Assembly: GCA_050250895.1 (NCBI GenBank)
Contig: JBFWNU010000001.1
Location: 288,001 to 352,000, forward strand
Direction of reading: 5' to 3'
DNA: 64,000 nucleotides
Source of the DNA: Vulcanimicrobiota bacterium
Lineage (GTDB): Bacteria; Vulcanimicrobiota; Xenobia; Xenobiales; JADMJV01
The translations under genes and the position numbers were made by a program. Shown here piece after piece: positions 8,457 through 46,097 of this stretch. The notes beneath the pieces are model-generated. The model saw nothing but the letters and a program-made list of their open reading frames with translations. It ran no database searches and was not told where the DNA came from. Positions within the stretch are counted from its first letter, which is position 1; each line of letters opens with the position of its first letter.

Positions 8457-8489
8457 AGTGTAGTGGCCCGAACTGAAGTTTTCCTGAAA
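8457..8489 (-). promoter_or_regulatory. TTTCAG-N5-CTTCAG-N10-TACACT promoter
   Basis: Direct repeat with 11-bp period, -10 hexamer, ATG 7 nt downstream. Confidence 0.65.
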
Positions 8490-8584
8490 GAATTCCTTCG
8501 CTGGATGCGAAACGACTCGCCGGCCCGCCTGGCAAGTTCTCCGAGGGTCACGAGCCCAGCCTAAACCCTGACGCAGGGTTAGGG

Positions 8585-8944
8585 TCAATGCCTGTTCTTG
8601 AGATCGCAGCGCTGGTAATCGGGGTCGGCCAGGCGATCCTTGCGCTTGCGGTCACAACGAGTGTGATAAGAATCGACCTCCGGGTCGCGATAGCCGGGGC
8701 GGCCGTAGTTGTAGGTGTCGTAGCCCAACGACGGATAACCGCCGCCCACGTAGGAGCCCTGACGAGCCCGACCGCTGCCGTAGTAGTAGTCGAGCCCTGC
8801 GCAAATGTTGGGGTTGTTAACGACCCCCTGGACGCGGTTGGGCACGGGCGGCCGCTGGGACACGGGCGGGACGATGACCTTGCCGAAATCCTGGGCGCAA
8901 AGCGGCGCGGTCAAAACAAAGAAAAGAAAAATCCAGCGTTTCAC
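8585..8944 (-). CDS. Small exported hypothetical protein
   Basis: Signal peptide MKRWIFLFFVLTAPLCA; TAAGCT 6 nt before the GTG. Confidence 0.7.
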   Translation of the reverse strand: MKRWIFLFFVLTAPLCAQDFGKVIVPPVSQRPPVPNRVQGVVNNPNICAGLDYYYGSGRARQGSYVGGGYPSLGYDTYNYGRPGYRDPEVDSYHTRCDRKRKDRLADPDYQRCDLKNRH

Positions 8945-8990
8945 GGCCTCAGCTTAGCCGCAAAACGCCGGATGAGCTATGAACAGGAGG

Positions 8991-10433
8991 TTAACGACAA
9001 CCGGTGGCAGGCAAATAGGTGCCGGGCCGAACCGACGGGCGGACGGGGCTCACCTCGGCTTTGGTGGCCCCCTCGCCGGTCGCTTCGACCGAACCCGAAA
9101 CGGGCTCGACGGTATAGTCGGCACGATGCACGAACTCGAACTTCTGGCCGCTATAGTCGATTGTATAGTGGGCGAACAGCACCCGACCGCCGGCCGGGCA
9201 GGGCACGGTGCGCGCATAGCGCACCAACTTTTCTTCAAACAATCGAGGGTGATATTTCTGGGCCGTGAAGACCGAGGTCAGCGCAATCGACTCGGCCACA
9301 TGCAGGTAGCGTCCCAGGTTGCGGGCGTCGACCTTGCCGGTATACTCGTCTCGCTGTCCGTGCTGGTCGACGATGTAGACGCGCACGAAGAAGTCGATCA
9401 CATCCACCGAGAAGACGCGCCAGATGATGATGCCAAAGGCGCTGGCCCAGCGCTCGAGAAAGGCTTGCCAGGGTCGAGCCAGCGGTCGCCCCTCGATGAA
9501 GTTATACCACTGGCAGAACTTGGCCGGACCGAGCAATACCAGATACATCAGCAAGAAGCCGGTCAGGCCGGCGGCCAGCCAGGCCGGCAGGATGGGCAGG
9601 CTCTGGTGCACCTGAGTCTGATGGACGAACTGAGCCAACCACAGGTCAAAGCGACTGCCGGCGGGCACAAAAAGCAGACCGGCCGTCATGACCATCGGCA
9701 GCAAGAAGGCCAGGCGAATCTGGGTCATCACGAACAAGAACGAAAGCGCGATGGCCAGCGCGCCCACCCAGCGGGTGGGAGGATAGAGCATCAGCAGGCC
9801 AGCCGCAATCTGCACCCGGAATGCGCTCTGATTAAGAAAGCGATAGATGGGGTGACCCGGGTCGGTGTGACGATAGAGCTTCCAGAAGCGGCCCCAGAAG
9901 GGATTGGCCAGGCCCAGTTGCATACCGGCGTTGCCGGCATAACCGCAGACCGACTTGTAGCTGCCGGCACACATCTGGATGACGGCGTAGTCGACCTGGA
10001 AGACCAGCACGGTGGCGGCCAGGACCCAGCCGTTGAGGTCGAGATAACGACCCACTTCCAGGCAGAAGACGCAGGCGGCCAACCAGTAGCAGAAGAATCC
10101 CGGTGCGCCCATTCCCCGTAGCAGACTGCTCCAGCGGGTATGAACGTAGTAATACCAGCAGATGCCCAGATTGACGGCGGCGAAGACCACCGTATCCACG
10201 CCGCGGATGAGCATGGCTGCCGAGACCAACCACAGGCCCGTGAGCAACGTGTGCGCGAAAGGGTTCTCCAGTAGCTCGGTGTTGCGATCCCCATAGCCAC
10301 CCCAGCGGGTGCTGCGATAGAACCATCGCCCCGGCAGGGCCGTCCATAGGATGGTACCGACCAGCAGCCAGCCGTAGGCCATTCTGATGACGGCCTGGGT
10401 GGTCGGTGAGAGAACGGGCAGCAAATCAGACAT
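8991..10433 (-). CDS. Polytopic membrane protein, HTTM-like
   Basis: Multiple TM segments; Q-x-x-Y...AG-x-x-K segment (FQVDYAVIQMCAGSYK); start MSDLLP overlaps the upstream stop. Confidence 0.65.
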   Translation of the reverse strand: MSDLLPVLSPTTQAVIRMAYGWLLVGTILWTALPGRWFYRSTRWGGYGDRNTELLENPFAHTLLTGLWLVSAAMLIRGVDTVVFAAVNLGICWYYYVHTRWSSLLRGMGAPGFFCYWLAACVFCLEVGRYLDLNGWVLAATVLVFQVDYAVIQMCAGSYKSVCGYAGNAGMQLGLANPFWGRFWKLYRHTDPGHPIYRFLNQSAFRVQIAAGLLMLYPPTRWVGALAIALSFLFVMTQIRLAFLLPMVMTAGLLFVPAGSRFDLWLAQFVHQTQVHQSLPILPAWLAAGLTGFLLMYLVLLGPAKFCQWYNFIEGRPLARPWQAFLERWASAFGIIIWRVFSVDVIDFFVRVYIVDQHGQRDEYTGKVDARNLGRYLHVAESIALTSVFTAQKYHPRLFEEKLVRYARTVPCPAGGRVLFAHYTIDYSGQKFEFVHRADYTVEPVSGSVEATGEGATKAEVSPVRPSVRPGTYLPATGCR

Positions 10434-43447: not shown

Positions 43448-45364
43448 ATGCTCAAGAACAAGGTCGTTTCTGCCGCTGCAGCGGTCGAAGTCATCGTTTC
43501 CGGAGACACCGTCGCCACCGGAGGATTTGTGGGAAGCGGCTTCGCCGAGGGCCTGGCCGAGGCGCTCGAACGACGCTTTCTCGACACCGGCGAACCGGCC
43601 AACCTCACCCTGGTCTATGCGGCCGGCCAGGGCGACGGCCAGACACGGGGCCTCAACCACTTCGCCCACGAAGGGATGGTCAAGCGGGTGGTGGGCGGCC
43701 ACTGGGGGCTGGTGCCCGGCCTGGGGCGGCTGGCCCTCGAGAACAAGATCGAGGCCTACAACCTGCCCCAGGGCGTGATCTCGCATCTGTATCGCAATAT
43801 CGCCGCCGGTAAGCCAGGAGTGCTCACCCACGTCGGCCTCGAGACCTTCGTGGACCCTCGTCTCGAGGGAGGTCGTCTCAACAACCGCACCCGTGAGGAA
43901 CTGGTCGAGGTGATGAGCGTGCGAGGACGCGAGTATCTGTTCTATCACGCCTTTCCCATCCAGGTGGCCCTGTTGCGTGGCACTACCGCCGACCTGGCCG
44001 GCAACATCTCGATGGAGCGAGAAGCCCTGAGCCTCGAGGCCCTGGCCATCGCTCAGGCGGTCAAAAACAGCGGCGGCGTGGTGCTGGTCCAGGTCGAGCG
44101 AGTCACCACCCAGCACCACTTGCACCCTCAAATGATCAAGATACCCGGCGCCCTGGTCGACTGCGTGGTGGTGGCCCAGCCCCATCAGCACCAGATGACC
44201 TTTGGCGAAGACTACAACCCGGCCTACACCGGAGAGGTCCGCATTCCCTCGACCTCGCTGGCCCCGATGCCCCTCGACGCCCGCAAGGTGATCGCCCGCC
44301 GCGGGGCCTCGTTTCTCAAGATCAACTCGGTGGTCAATCTGGGCATCGGTATGCCCGAGGGCATCGCTCGCGTGGCCAACGAAGAGCGTATTCTAGACTT
44401 CATCACCCTGACGGTCGAGCCGGGGGGCCTGGGCGGCATCCCAGCGGGCGGATTGAGCTTTGGCGCGGTGGCCAACCCGGCCGCCATCATCGATCAGCCC
44501 TCGCAATTTGATTTCTACGACGGAGGCGGCCTGGATCAGGCCTTTCTCGGCATGGCCGAATGCGACCGCCACGGCAATGTCAACGTGAGCAAATTCGGCC
44601 CCCGCCTGGCCGGGGCCGGGGGCTTTATCAACATCAGCCAGAACACCGAGTTCGTCTGCTTTATGGGCACCTTCACCTCGAAGACCGAGGTGGCTGTTGA
44701 AGACGGTCGACTTCGCATTCTGGCCGACGGTGGAGCCCGCAAATTCGTGGACCAGGTTCATCAGGTCACCTTCAGCGCGTCCTACGCCAGAAAACACCAC
44801 CATAAAGTCTACTACGTTACCGAGCGAGCCGTCTTTCGACTGGCCGAAGAGGGCCTGGAACTCATCGAACTAGCGCCCGGGGTCGAACTCGAACAGGTGC
44901 TGGCTCAAATGGACTTTCAGCCTGCCATCGCCGATCCGTTGGCCAGCATGGACCCGCGCATTTTCCGGGCCGAACTGATGGGGCTCGACTCGCAAAGCCG
45001 CGACCTGGTCAGCCAGCGTCTGTACTACGATCCCGAGACCAACACTGTCTTCGTCGATTTTGAAGGACTCAGGCTAGATACCCCCGCTCAGGTCGATGAA
45101 CTCAGCCGACGCCTCGACGACTATTTCTCGGCCCTGGGCGGCAAGTGCAAGGCGGTGGTCAACTATGACAACTTCGTGGTGGCGCCCGCAGCCGAAGCCG
45201 CTTATTTCGCCATGGTCGAGCGCAACCAGGCCCGATACTTTTTGTCCTGCGTGCGCTATTCGACCAACGCCTTCTTTCGCCGTCAGGTCGGCCCCAAGTT
45301 CGCCCAGCTCAAGTCGAGGCTGCACTCCAGCTATTCGGAAGCGGTCAGTCAACTCGAGGGTTAA
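43448..45364 (+). CDS. Acyl-CoA:acetate/propionate CoA-transferase (YdiF/Pct family) with C-terminal extension
   Basis: [29 protein letters not shown] catalytic Glu, [19 protein letters not shown]. Confidence 0.92.
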
Positions 45365-45412
45365 CATCACGGCAACCTCCCCGACGCAGTACCAACATAA
45401 GTTCGAGTGGCA

Positions 45413-46063
45413 ATGTTGATTACGCCAGCCCGGCCCAAGCCACCGACCCCCCCCGCGCCCAAGACTCCCCCGCCGTCGAAAGACGACTTCGATCCCATCG
45501 AGCTGATCCGGGATGGCATCGAGAAGGACCCCTTGATTCGGGCCGGCGCCATGGGCAGCCTGGCCTATGTGGCGGGCTCGGCCTATCCCACCGTGTGGAT
45601 GCACGAAATGGGCCACGCTCTCACGGCCGAAGCGCTCTTCCAGGGAGCCAACCCCATCGTCGAAGTGACTCCCTTCGGTGGCGGCGTTACCTACTGGCGC
45701 CCGGGCCCATTGACCGAACGCGGCCAACAGCTCGGCTTTGACGGCGCCCGCGCGGCCGTCTCGGCAGCGGGTCCGCTGGTCGATATGGCTGTGGCCATGA
45801 CCACCTTCGGGGTCGGCTACAAGATTCGCAAAGAGCATCCTTACGTGGGGTCGGCCCTGATGGGCTACGCCGCCTTTAGCGTAGTCAACGACATTCTCTA
45901 CGCCAGTTCGGCTCTCGGCAACATAGCCAAGACGGCCGCCACCGGTAACGACTTCGCCAATATCGCCGTGCGGACCGGCCTCCACCCCCTGGCCTCGATC
46001 GCCATCATGGCGGCCATTCTGCCGGCCGAATATCTGTTGCTGCGCTACCTCGAGAACAACTAG
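45413..46063 (+). CDS. M50-like membrane metallopeptidase with Pro-rich N-terminus
   Basis: HEMGH, VSAAGP, GND; TM segments. Confidence 0.78.
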   Translation: MLITPARPKPPTPPAPKTPPPSKDDFDPIELIRDGIEKDPLIRAGAMGSLAYVAGSAYPTVWMHEMGHALTAEALFQGANPIVEVTPFGGGVTYWRPGPLTERGQQLGFDGARAAVSAAGPLVDMAVAMTTFGVGYKIRKEHPYVGSALMGYAAFSVVNDILYASSALGNIAKTAATGNDFANIAVRTGLHPLASIAIMAAILPAEYLLLRYLENN

Positions 46064-46064
46064 T

Positions 46065-46097
46065 TTTCAGCTTTTTTTAAGGGCTCGAGATTACGTT
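46065..46097 (+). promoter_or_regulatory. TTTCAG-N5-TTTAAG-N10-TACGTT promoter
   Basis: Same geometry, upstream of 46125. Confidence 0.62.

Follow-up and report, generated by a model that had tools for sequence, protein, structure and literature searches.

A rigid two-box TTTCAG element marks a putative activator-dependent promoter class in Xenobia whose products share an N-terminal tag

A promoter element made of two TTTCAG boxes upstream of a TAGnCT hexamer defines a class of about 350–390 promoters, which drives about 350–450 genes (about 450 corresponding to 5–6% of the genome) in the Vulcanimicrobiota bacterium studied here. The products of the boxed genes, leaderless and leadered alike, share an N-terminal tag, which is the new element of this analysis. 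Based on the sequence data, we suggest that the element probably (at a probability of about 0.6) serves as the recognition site of activator-dependent promoters that form a lineage-specific class in Xenobia (Eremiobacterota/Vulcanimicrobiota), for which a class II organization of the Pho-box or SARP kind is proposed.

In the window, that is, the whole analysed stretch of 64,000 nucleotides, TTTCAG-N5-TTTCAG was found seven times against 0.10 expected (the mean of 100 shuffles), and seven matches were reached in none of the 100 shuffles; the motif thus occurs beyond chance. The genome scan proposed in the preliminary description, performed on 9.5 Mb with a 33-nt-wide matrix seeded on the motif itself and with genes called by our own codon-usage caller, returned 391 sites versus 31 in the reversed sequence used as a control. 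The layout is rigid: the boxes number exactly two, lie 11 bp apart and are followed after 10 bp by TAGnCT. Across the genome there are 143 copies of TTTCAG-N10-TANNNT, and spacers of 8, 9, 11 and 12 nt give 10, 12, 14 and 17 matches, respectively. Of 355 sites, 297 have a TTTCAG-like hexamer at offset 0, 220 have one at −11 and 4 have one at −22, the background being 1.5. Intergenic positions accounted for 283 of the 355 sites, as compared to an intergenic share of 10.4% of the genome. The boxed −10 hexamer has G at position 3 in 67% and C at position 5 in 69% of cases and shows no TG extension.

A start codon was located exactly 6 nt past the hexamer at 131 of the 391 sites, which suggests that many boxed mRNAs are leaderless. 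These codons comprise 86 ATG, 45 GTG and no TTG, and an in-frame stop precedes any upstream start in 117 of the 131 genes. The originally implied transcription start, 7 nt past the hexamer, is supported by the codons placed exactly there; in about half of the promoters it would fall on the first base (A or G) of the start codon, yielding leaderless mRNA.

The site is carried by about 4–5% of genes, and boxed promoters are scattered over all contigs. None of the 64 tRNA genes nor the single 16S gene is preceded by the motif, and the ribosomal-protein cluster, rpoB and rpoD have zero sites, in agreement with the initial view of a real, dispersed, non-housekeeping promoter class. The expected enrichment in genes without a Pfam family was also observed (87 of 140 sampled boxed genes versus 19 of 44 unboxed genes of the window). 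The regulon also includes many ordinary enzymes, such as GlpD, lipid desaturases, acyltransferases, adenosine deaminase and RNase II. A separate class of approximately 335 other leaderless promoters has a TTGc −35 element and a TG-extended −10 and carries no boxes.

The tag has the form M-x-[I/V], lacks early acidic residues, is rich in Pro, Ser, Thr and Gln and does not resemble a Sec signal. Often D-x-V-x-L-S, found in about a sixth of the boxed-gene proteins, and a Gly/Ala-rich hydrophobic segment come next; 35% of the proteins have a hydrophobic segment after the tag. Ile or Val occupies position 3 in 168 of 298 boxed versus 18 of 122 unboxed leaderless genes (p = 6.5e-16), and a Sec-like start occurs in 5 and 49 of them, respectively. 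A local HMM of the tag matched 57 proteins, 35 of which are encoded behind a box (odds ratio 35). Since the tag is also present in 50 of 112 leadered boxed genes, whose start codons are uncertain as assigned by our caller, it is not a transcription-start effect. We infer that the tag is a common targeting or export signal and that promoter and tag define one co-expressed, co-targeted set; with a shared non-classical N-terminal tag and a fixed box, one regulator probably switches on a large set of proteins with a common destination.

In the proposed mechanism, a winged-helix activator of the OmpR/PhoB or SARP type would bind as two copies, arranged head-to-tail, to the two boxes, which, at about −39 to −34 and −28 to −23, would replace the −35 element. 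The activators would bring primary-sigma RNA polymerase to the high-GC −10 (TAGnCT, −12 to −7), and transcription would start 7 nt past the hexamer. Candidate regulators encoded in the genome include 16 OmpR-type response regulators and about 30 REC-wHTH-BTAD regulators; a box of their own was found before 0 of 46 winged-helix genes. Of the OmpR/PhoB-type activation suggested earlier, the geometry stands, being that of the Pho box as summarized in PMC1906773, but no OmpR-type regulator could be tied to the box.

In the Pho box, as outlined in the same source, 11-bp direct repeats end 10 bp before a TANNNT −10, and the boxed promoters resemble E. coli PhoB/OmpR-family class II promoters in having two tandem repeats of 11-bp period, 10 bp to TAN3T, no −35 element and fixed spacing. 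They differ in the repeat, which is TTTCAG and not CTGTCAT-like, and, unlike in the Pho regulon, the set is about ten times larger, many transcripts are leaderless and the products carry an N-terminal tag. Streptomyces SARP promoters (AfsR/ActII-ORF4-type), in the account of PMC11301090, have repeats 8 nt upstream of the −10 that overlap the −35, with an over-long −35/−10 spacer. Direct repeats on one face over the −35 position near the −10 and the over-long distance are common to both systems, as are a −10 of the high-GC TAGnnT type and REC-wHTH-BTAD proteins, about 30 here. The repeats lie 10 nt from the −10 here instead of 8, and a SARP usually controls one biosynthetic cluster, whereas hundreds of dispersed genes are involved here. 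As in leaderless promoters of high-GC Terrabacteria (Actinobacteria, Deinococcus), TANNNT lies 6 nt before ATG/GTG, the putative transcription start; those promoters usually lack a conserved upstream element, whereas here there is a strict two-box element and a gene subset with a shared tag. The hrp box (HrpL) and the PIP box (HrpX), both marking effector regulons of plant pathogens, are likewise short boxes in front of dispersed, often orphan genes whose products have a non-Sec N-terminal signature. However, there the box also precedes secretion-machinery operons and an injectisome is present, whereas here the flagellar clusters have no box, no non-flagellar gate was seen and secretion of the products is only putative.

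Among relatives, enrichment of the motif extends to the same genus, the sister genus g2 and a genus of family f2 (g4), with, for example, 61 + 67 matches versus 3 + 1 in the control in g4. In 400 kb of G018, 19 sites were found versus 0 in the reversed control, 8 of the 19 having the 6-nt gap. Homologues of the peptidase gene at 41600 keep the box in front at 9 of 18 loci, other genera included. In genus g3, of the same family, the exact pattern shows little or no enrichment and the repeat alone is enriched only modestly, so the order does not carry the promoter class uniformly.

The boxed −10 differs from the unboxed leaderless −10, and a different sigma factor would also account for this. 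It is possible, though unlikely, that an alternative sigma factor, alone or with a bound partner, itself recognizes the two boxes and TAGnCT, as in regulons of the HrpL or general-stress type. The −10 preference unlike that of unboxed promoters, the lost TG extension and a large regulon rich in unknown proteins, as in stress and stationary-phase sigma regulons, fit such a reader, and three non-FliA group-3-like sigma factors are encoded in the genome. On the other hand, spacers of 10 bp for the proximal and 21 bp for the distal box do not suit sigma region 4, and to our knowledge known sigma-70-family factors do not read direct repeats of 11-bp period. Moreover, the distribution is wrong for all three group-3 factors: one is present in all six genera, another was seen in family f1 only and was not found in any of five g4 genomes, although the motif is strongest in g4, and the third occurs in two of the five g4 genomes. 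FliA was excluded as a reader of the boxes because an exact GCCGATAA −10, and no box, precedes the flagellin gene. That the boxes are simply the −35 equivalent of a general promoter type of the phylum, without regulon meaning, is very improbable. GlpD, an ordinary metabolic gene product, is indeed in the boxed sample; the small share of genes with a site, its absence from tRNA, rRNA, ribosomal-protein, rpoB and rpoD loci, the separate sigma-70-like class and a protein-level tag common to boxed genes and missing from unboxed ones all argue against it. Hardly any credence can be given to a phosphate-starvation regulon proper, with a PhoB/PhoP orthologue acting on a diverged Pho box. Its geometry, as given in PMC1906773, is identical, and the sample contains phosphoester and lipid-remodelling functions (GDPD twice, 5′-nucleotidase, PLD, Exo_endo_phos, DHHA1, MGDG synthase and GlpD). 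However, about 350 promoters are far above known Pho regulons (PMC1906773 puts that of E. coli at 8 operons and 39 genes or more), 62% of the sampled members have no Pfam family, and the common tag is out of place in a Pho response. The genome yielded no match to the hallmark PstS and PhoU families.

It is also doubtful that hundreds of boxed-gene products are secreted as substrates of flagellar-type type III export, with the box acting as an "effector box" like the hrp or PIP box. The P. syringae rules, as stated in PMC3338616, ask for Pro or an aliphatic residue at position 3/4, for the first 12 residues to be free of acidic ones and for a Ser content above 10%; the first two are followed by 60% of the 298 boxed proteins versus 23–26% of controls, but the Ser rule by 22% only and all three by 15%. 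Sec signals are nearly absent, and the genome has two flagellar export-gate gene sets and eight extra FlhA_C docking-domain paralogues. The tag is also found on InhA-like metalloproteases, GH68/32, 5′-nucleotidase, GDSL lipase and PQQ_2 propellers, families that are usually exported. Against this, flagellin, a genuine late substrate, has a sigma-28 promoter, the tag HMM fails to match the FlgM encoded in this genome (0.3 bits), and proteins with the hydrophobic segment after the tag could simply be membrane-anchored. The full-length FHIPEP genes both occur in flagellar gene neighbourhoods without injectisome context, and no full-length FHIPEP gate was found outside the flagellar gene clusters of the genome. 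The FlhA_C paralogue counts do not track the motif, g3 having 3–10 FHIPEP matches and little motif. Given that neither flagellar gene cluster nor flagellin carries the box, type III-like export is only a possibility. The secreted or effector-like character first attributed to the set is putative: it has the enrichment in two of the three N-terminal rules in its favour, and the unboxed export clusters and flagellin and the many ordinary enzymes against it. The proposed predatory or host-associated stage is entirely speculative.

Within the window, all six sites first described as full two-box promoters (before 8449, 14913, 29255, 40963, 41351 and 46125) were recovered as written, with 24.6–31.2 bits (Table 1). 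Among the four called partial, those before 41600 and 40608 are strong, that before 17892 is borderline, and that before 22319 (at most 9.9 bits) is at chance level, judging by 453 reversed-sequence matches at ≥10 bits. The upstream regions of pruA (24182), plsX (32543) and kup (48330), described as motif-free, have zero matches of at least 8 bits. Two sites had been overlooked, the strong one at 41520–41552 and the decayed copy before 16649.

Table 1. Boxed promoter sites of the window and the genes behind them.
Feature	Position	Strand	Details
Two-box promoter TTTCAG/CTTCAG/TACACT	8457..8489	−	24.6 bits; ATG at 8449, 7 nt past −10 hexamer
133-aa ORF	8048..8449	−	No Pfam family; Gly-rich hydrophobic stretch
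Two-box promoter	14920..14952	−	26.6 bits; ATG at 14913, 6 nt past −10 hexamer (leaderless)
M1-peptidase/ERAP1_C-like protein, 565 aa	13216..14913	−	N-terminus MQIGP
Decayed two-box copy TTTAAC/GATAAC/TAATCT	16656..16688	−	8.0 bits; leaderless spacing; before 16649
Borderline site	17919..17951	−	14.7 bits; ATG 26 nt downstream
402-aa gene behind borderline site	16684–17892	−	N-terminus MQIPS
Two-box promoter	29218..29250	+	29.1 bits; ATGs 4 and 10 nt past −10 hexamer
832-aa gene	29255–31753	+	No Pfam family
Promoter, proximal box strong, distal box weak	40617..40649	−	27.2 bits; ATG at 40608, 8 nt past −10 hexamer
318-aa gene	39652–40608	−	N-terminal YidD domain; N-terminus MSIGG
Two-box promoter	40999..41031	−	29.2 bits; leader 35 nt; ribosome-binding site GGAGAG
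88-aa gene	40697–40963	−	N-terminus MSTINP; C-terminal hydrophobic tail
Two-box promoter	41391..41423	−	27.3 bits; leader 39 nt
89-aa gene	41082–41351	−	66% identity to 88-aa neighbour 40697–40963
Extra two-box site without own ORF	41520..41552	−	30.7 bits; 129 nt upstream of 41351 promoter
Promoter, distal box weak	41559..41591	+	27.3 bits; ATG at 41600, 8 nt past −10 hexamer
Clostripain-type C11 peptidase, 467 aa	41600–43003	+	
Two-box promoter	46065..46097	+	31.2 bits; leader 27 nt; ribosome-binding site AGGAGAG
70-aa gene	46125–46337	+	N-terminus MNIRQP; no Pfam family

The gene model at 8048..8449 is uncertain, the codon-usage caller having favoured an overlapping ORF at 7734–8240. The gene at 14934–16649 is a tandem paralogue of the 14913 gene (78% identical) and has the same N-terminus, MQIGP. 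The extra site at 41520..41552 lies back-to-back with the 41600 promoter, with a gap of 6 bp, and may serve as a second, tandem promoter or as the start of a short RNA.

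Based on sequence analysis, the two-box promoter TTTCAG-N5-TTTCAG-N10-TANNNT defines a real, dispersed regulon of predicted activator type that is enriched in orphan genes. TTTCAG-N5-TTTCAG with at most one mismatch was found seven times in the window, while 100 dinucleotide-preserving shuffles gave a mean of 0.10 and none of them reached seven. The same layout was read at each site: a box, 5 nt, a box, 10 nt and TANNNT. In the whole genome (9.5 Mb, 63% G+C, 17 contigs), TTTCAG-N10-TANNNT occurred 143 times, versus 10, 12, 14 and 17 times with spacers of 8, 9, 11 and 12 nt. A 33-nt weight matrix was built from the sites in three iterations (consensus tTTcAg..tttTTTcAGgcc.....gcTAg.cT). 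It returned 391 sites of at least 16 bits and 332 of at least 20 bits; the reversed, non-complemented genome used as a control gave 31 and 4. All six sites listed as full in the preliminary description were recovered (24.6–31.2 bits). Of the four listed as partial, those before 41600 and 40608 proved to be strong (27.3 and 27.2 bits), that before 17892 was borderline (14.7 bits), and that before 22319 was at chance level (at most 9.9 bits). One further strong site on the minus strand, absent from that list, was detected by the matrix. The proposed dispersal also held, with a mean of 1.85 sites per 50 kb and a variance of 2.76; the stretch of the window is one of the two densest 50-kb bins. With tightly linked downstream genes counted in, the class covers about 453 genes. 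Divergent boxed pairs within 150 nt were counted ten times genome-wide.

Genes were called by our own codon-usage caller (7969 genes). A gene start was located within 400 nt downstream on the same strand for 348 of the 391 sites, and for 131 of the 391 the start codon lay exactly 6 nt past the hexamer. Among the 355 sites of at least 18 bits, the start was at 4–9 nt in 191 cases, at 10–100 nt in 122 (where a GGAGG-type ribosome-binding site is usually visible) and at 101–400 nt in 13, with no start in 29. These sites are mostly intergenic (283/355), the intergenic share of the genome being 10.4% by the same gene calls. In 117 of the 131 cases with exact spacing, an in-frame stop precedes any upstream start codon. 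The arrangement is that of the leaderless primary-sigma promoters of Terrabacteria, where TANNNT stands 6–7 nt ahead of the first start codon in the ORF. The start codons at exact spacing were 86 ATG, 45 GTG and no TTG; the leadered boxed genes had 92 ATG, 19 GTG and 13 TTG. Transcription beginning with the start codon's own first base would leave just this trace: a purine in every case, at a constant distance from the −10. These counts are indirect evidence for such starts. A search of sequencing runs with window 38500–47500 listed no RNA run; small shares of its words were present in three DNA runs only. We conclude that the boxed sites are promoters, many of them predicted to give leaderless mRNAs.

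The boxed promoters are separate from a general leaderless class. TANNNT was found exactly 6 nt upstream of start codons 745 times, where the neighbouring offsets in the same codon phase predict about 270. Boxes were present in 116 of the 745, and about 335 cases without boxes remained after background subtraction. In the unboxed leaderless promoters, which form a class of predicted sigma-70-like type, T-G-G/C occupies −35 to −32 and the −10 is TG-extended, with 68% G at −14. The TG extension is missing from the boxed promoters, where the share of G at −14 is 35% and TAGnCT is preferred (G 67%, C 69%). At stable-RNA genes, no site of at least 10 bits was found within 300 nt upstream of tRNA genes (0/64, which by itself is only suggestive, the probability being 0.056 at the protein-gene rate of 4.4%) or in the 2.5 kb before the one 16S gene detected. 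The ribosomal-protein cluster, rpoB and rpoD likewise have no site in front of them.

Measured from the proximal box, 297 of the 355 sites have a TTTCAG-like hexamer (at most one mismatch) at offset 0, 220 have one at −11, and 4 have one at −22 (background 1.5). A third box and inverted copies were sought as well; there were none among the 355 sites. Counted from the start as +1, the distal box covers about −39 to −34, the proximal one about −28 to −23, and the hexamer −12 to −7. Spacers of 21 and 10 bp make both boxes unusable as an ordinary −35. The boxes are direct repeats of 11-bp period; the proximal one ends about 10 bp from the −10 at a fixed spacing, with no −35 element. This layout matches that of the Pho box, described in the available part of PMC1906773 as tandem direct repeats of 11-bp period, 10 bp upstream of a TAN3T −10. 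SARP sites are close in layout too: according to the available part of PMC11301090, their direct repeats stand 8 nt before the −10 and overlap with the −35, the −35/−10 spacer is over-long, and two OmpR-type domains sit side by side on one DNA face. The −35 overlap and the over-long spacer are alike in both, whereas the distance to the −10 is 8 nt in SARP sites and 10 nt here. The hallmark families of a Pho regulon, PstS (PF12849) and PhoU (PF01895), were not found at E ≤ 1e-5 in the genome, which is rated 99.6% complete; of 14 control genomes, 13 were positive in the same searches.

Three traits fit a class II activator, which would recruit the primary-sigma polymerase to the boxed promoters: the number of boxes is strictly two, only one spacer is permitted, and both the −35 and the TG extension are lost. 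The main rival explanation is that a dedicated sigma factor reads them. However, the distribution of the three non-FliA group-3-like sigma factors across genomes does not fit that of the motif. FliA can be excluded as the reader, since the exact GCCGATAA −10 of flagellin comes without a box. The boxed promoters, with their TAGnCT, do not follow the sigma-28 pattern TAAA-N15-GCCGATAA. The loosened pattern TAAA-N14-16-NCCGATAN, with free octamer ends, occurred 11 times genome-wide, and strict GCCGATA[AT] once. For the activator, the search is narrowed to a short list of candidates, 16 OmpR-type response regulators and about 30 SARP-type proteins with REC, winged-helix and BTAD domains, and the boxed sites are ready probes for DAP-seq, EMSA and reporter fusions. 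An autoregulated regulator was also considered and rejected: a box precedes 0 of the 46 winged-helix genes. The SARP-type response regulators are paralogous proteins of 450–1140 aa built of a receiver domain, a TPR-like linker, an OmpR-type winged helix and BTAD; outside Actinobacteria such an expansion is unusual.

The 348 downstream proteins fell into 261 BLAST clusters, the largest with 10 members, which rules out one paralogous family as the source of the repeat. For Pfam annotation, 140 of 306 candidates outside the window (at least 18 bits, start within 100 nt) were drawn at random. A family was found for 26 of 70 at E ≤ 1e-5 and for 27 of 70 at E ≤ 1e-6, leaving 87 of the 140 without one. 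In the window, at E ≤ 1e-6, a family was found for 3 of 9 boxed ORFs and for 25 of 44 unboxed ORFs, a small control. Orphan genes are thus over-represented, as had been supposed (53/140 versus 25/44 with a family, on the same small control). The named families in the sample included Lipid_desat (four), Acyltransferase (three), GDPD (two), PLD, GDSL lipase, caleosin, MGDG synthase, GlpD and PHB depolymerase. PQQ_2 propellers (six), InhA-like MAM (three), P450 (two), animal haem peroxidase, TGL, alpha-amylase, GH68/32, adenosine deaminase, RNase II, PrmA and PilZ were also present. Ribosomal proteins, polymerase subunits and transcription factors were all missing from the 140; in place of a transcription factor, only the one PilZ protein was found. 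The boxed genes of the window encode an M1/ERAP1-like peptidase, a C11 peptidase, a YidD-domain protein, proteins of 832 and 402 aa without a family, and small proteins of 88, 89 and 70 aa; the 88- and 89-aa proteins are 66% identical and have a C-terminal hydrophobic tail. YidD, a membrane-insertion-factor domain, is N-terminal in large multi-domain proteins, including paralogues on contigs C12 and C4 and locus L157 of genome G005; one example is a homologue of the C11 peptidase in genus g3. In some, glycine-zipper-like hydrophobic stretches follow.

The boxed proteins share an N-terminal tag: M-x-[I/V] and few early acidic residues, followed in about a sixth of them by D-x-V-x-L-S. Three sets were compared, namely 298 boxed proteins (at least 20 bits), 122 unboxed leaderless proteins (TG-extended −10) and all 7906 genes.

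N-terminal features of boxed proteins and of the two comparison sets
Feature	Boxed	Unboxed leaderless	All	Fisher p
Ile/Val at position 3	56%	15%	14%	6.5e-16
No Asp/Glu in residues 2–12	72%	46%	42%	
Sec-like hydrophobic start	1.7%	40%	12.6%	1.3e-24
[DE]x[VI]x[LIVF][STG] in residues 19–65	17%	3%	4%	
Hydrophobic Gly/Ala-rich 15-mer in residues 35–130	35%	15%	25%	

The position-3 signal was found in 109 of 170 leaderless and 50 of 112 leadered boxed genes. Since it is also present in leadered genes, where the start codon is far from the transcription start, it is a property of the protein or its translation rather than of the promoter. With a local HMM of the tag (consensus MQIQPLRSHPPVHRAAAAPPPAAASAEPQDQVELSGP), 57 proteins were found at E < 0.01; 35 of the 57 stand behind a box, versus 348 of the 7969 genes (odds ratio 35, p = 1.7e-32). 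In an alignment of 20 tag N-termini, M1, D27 and V29 are nearly invariant. Pfam holds no family for the tag even at E ≤ 10, and a 72-aa tag-only protein had no usable match in the ESM Atlas. Unboxed leaderless genes with a TG-extended −10 very often encode a Sec-type signal peptide (49/122). Two promoter types with different N-termini indicate that leaderless mRNAs serve two protein classes.

The PlsX of the window is 54–75% identical to PlsX of MAGs labelled Vulcanimicrobiota, Candidatus Xenobia, Candidatus Eremiobacteraeota or UBP9, which settles the lineage. Exact TTTCAG-N10-TANNNT was counted in 30 relatives, with the backwards-read sequence as a control. There were 151 occurrences within the same genus (control 37), 83–112 in the sister genus g2 (control 16–40) and 68–158 in genus g4 of another family (control 4–17); the exact pattern was not enriched in genus g3 or the small-genome family f3. 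The repeat alone was modestly enriched in g3 and f3 (133 versus 59 in genome G009, 33 versus 13 in G021), and it was counted 183 versus 9 times in genome G018. Homologues of the C11 peptidase were found in 10 of 31 genomes (29–42% identity). In 9 of 18 homologue loci, a site of at least 17.9 bits lies directly before the gene on the same strand, with the start 4–10 nt past the hexamer; the g3 homologue has no box upstream. The N-termini of the homologues include MKV, MNV, MQI, MNI, VNI and MNT. In 400 kb of G018, 19 sites of at least 16 bits were found versus none in the reversed control; the 6-nt gap was present in 8, and 9 of the 19 proteins had I/V at position 3. Box and tag thus travel together in a second family.

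To our knowledge, how Eremiobacterota regulate their genes is almost unexplored, and no member of the class Xenobia has been cultured. Neither the two-box promoter nor the tag was found in the literature on Eremiobacterota/Xenobia or on TTTCAG direct repeats, and the available parts of PMC9758169 and PMC11484240 make no mention of the two-box promoter. What this analysis adds is a genome-wide census, a distinction between the boxed promoters and the sigma-70-like leaderless class, the finding that stable-RNA and core operons have no box, the evidence that the class is conserved across families and, above all, the common N-terminal tag. A 33-nt signature predicts, from sequence alone, a co-regulated 5% of the genes together with their transcript and protein starts. 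Through the tag, several hundred "hypothetical proteins" become a single functional set that can be tested.

Export of the boxed proteins by a type III route is a minority reading. The available part of PMC3338616 gives three rules for P. syringae signals: Ser above 10%, an aliphatic residue or Pro at position 3 or 4, and a first stretch of 12 residues free of acidic ones. Rules two and three hold jointly for 60% of the 298 boxed proteins versus 23–26% of controls; Ser above 10% was found in 22% versus 10–12%, and all three rules in 15% versus 3–4%. However, the flagellar genes of both clusters are free of the box. The earlier interpretation is partly right: the dispersed, orphan-rich regulon stands, on the census and the Pfam counts, while the OmpR regulator, the secreted effectors and the predatory stage are hypotheses. 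Only two full-length FHIPEP genes were found, both among flagellar genes (FliF/G/H/M/N/P/Q/R, FlgB/C, FliK), and no non-flagellar injectisome was seen, judging from the FHIPEP genes and their neighbours. The copy number of FlhA_C across relatives does not follow the motif. A likeness of the tag to FlgM was considered and rejected: the genome's own FlgM scored 0.3 bits against the tag HMM (rank 1334), and PF04316 matched 0 of 20 tag sequences even at E ≤ 10. In addition, a third of the boxed proteins may simply be membrane-anchored behind the tag. Because of the box-free clusters, the gate contexts, the FlhA_C counts, FlgM and the membrane anchoring, we keep export as a minority reading. Should the tag prove to be an export signal, our picture of the roles that flagellar-type gates can play beyond motility would change.

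Eight proteins of the genome have the cytoplasmic docking domain of FlhA as their sole FlhA part, and some are fused to other domains: HTH_3-FlhA_C (376 aa), FlhB_C-FlhA_C (435 aa) and FliG_N-FlhA_C (1001 aa). A "box + tag" system of Xenobia could be imagined in which a single activator switches on about 350–450 genes, the non-Sec tag leads to a flagellum-derived type III gate, and the eight soluble FlhA_C paralogues (one HTH-fused) act as sorting or feedback devices; we regard this scheme as improbable. If true, no larger type III substrate repertoire would be known, and it would belong to an uncultured phylum and a 9.5-Mb genome of free-living appearance; a predatory or host-manipulating way of life would then be hinted at.

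Coordinates of features in the window and in the genome (C1, contig JBFWNU010000001.1; other C numbers, further contigs of the same assembly)
Location	Feature	Observation
Window 3866–7048	1060-aa protein, N-terminal GmrSD	box-free
Window 28489–28917	PIN-domain protein	box-free
Window 31796–32494	RadC-like JAB protein	box-free
Window 39652–40608	YidD-domain protein	YidD N-terminal
Window 41520–41552 (−)	two-box site	strong
Window 41520–41591	two boxed promoters	back-to-back, 6 bp apart; minus-strand one without its own ORF
Window 41600–43003	clostripain-type C11 peptidase	boxed
C1:2264471–2264860	three tandem units of ~130 bp	TTTCAG-N10-TACCTT in each; looks like a tandem repeat, not three promoters
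C5:580178–582421; C1:2581754–2584039; C13:71993–74293	REC-wHTH-BTAD proteins	examples
C1:545–605 kb	flagellar region	no site of at least 14 bits
C1:1435–1485 kb	flagellar region	three sites (30.9, 15.8, 24.0 bits), all outside flagellar genes (1458–1476 kb), nearest ~4 kb beyond
C1:553000–600000; C1:1447000–1485000	export-gate genes	FlhA, FlhB, FliR, FliF, FliG and FliH, each twice
C1:554283–555470 (L141:1283–2470)	ORF in flagellar cluster, beside FliW	CsrA (residues 1–52) and histidine-kinase ATPase (198–298)
C6:529401; C1:2013982; C1:2008860; C1:2475431; C7:121919; C7:117253; C1:1126976; C8:31716	FlhA_C proteins	

One gate set is accompanied by FlgM, FlgK, FlgL, FliW, FlgF/G/A/H/I, flagellin and FliA, and the other by FliP/Q/O/M/N, FliK, FliJ, FliE and FlgB/C. 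The CsrA/histidine-kinase ORF may be a true fusion or two genes merged by the gene caller. FHIPEP matches in relatives range from 2 to 19; the full-length genes number two or three in large-genome relatives and one in the 2.4-Mb family.
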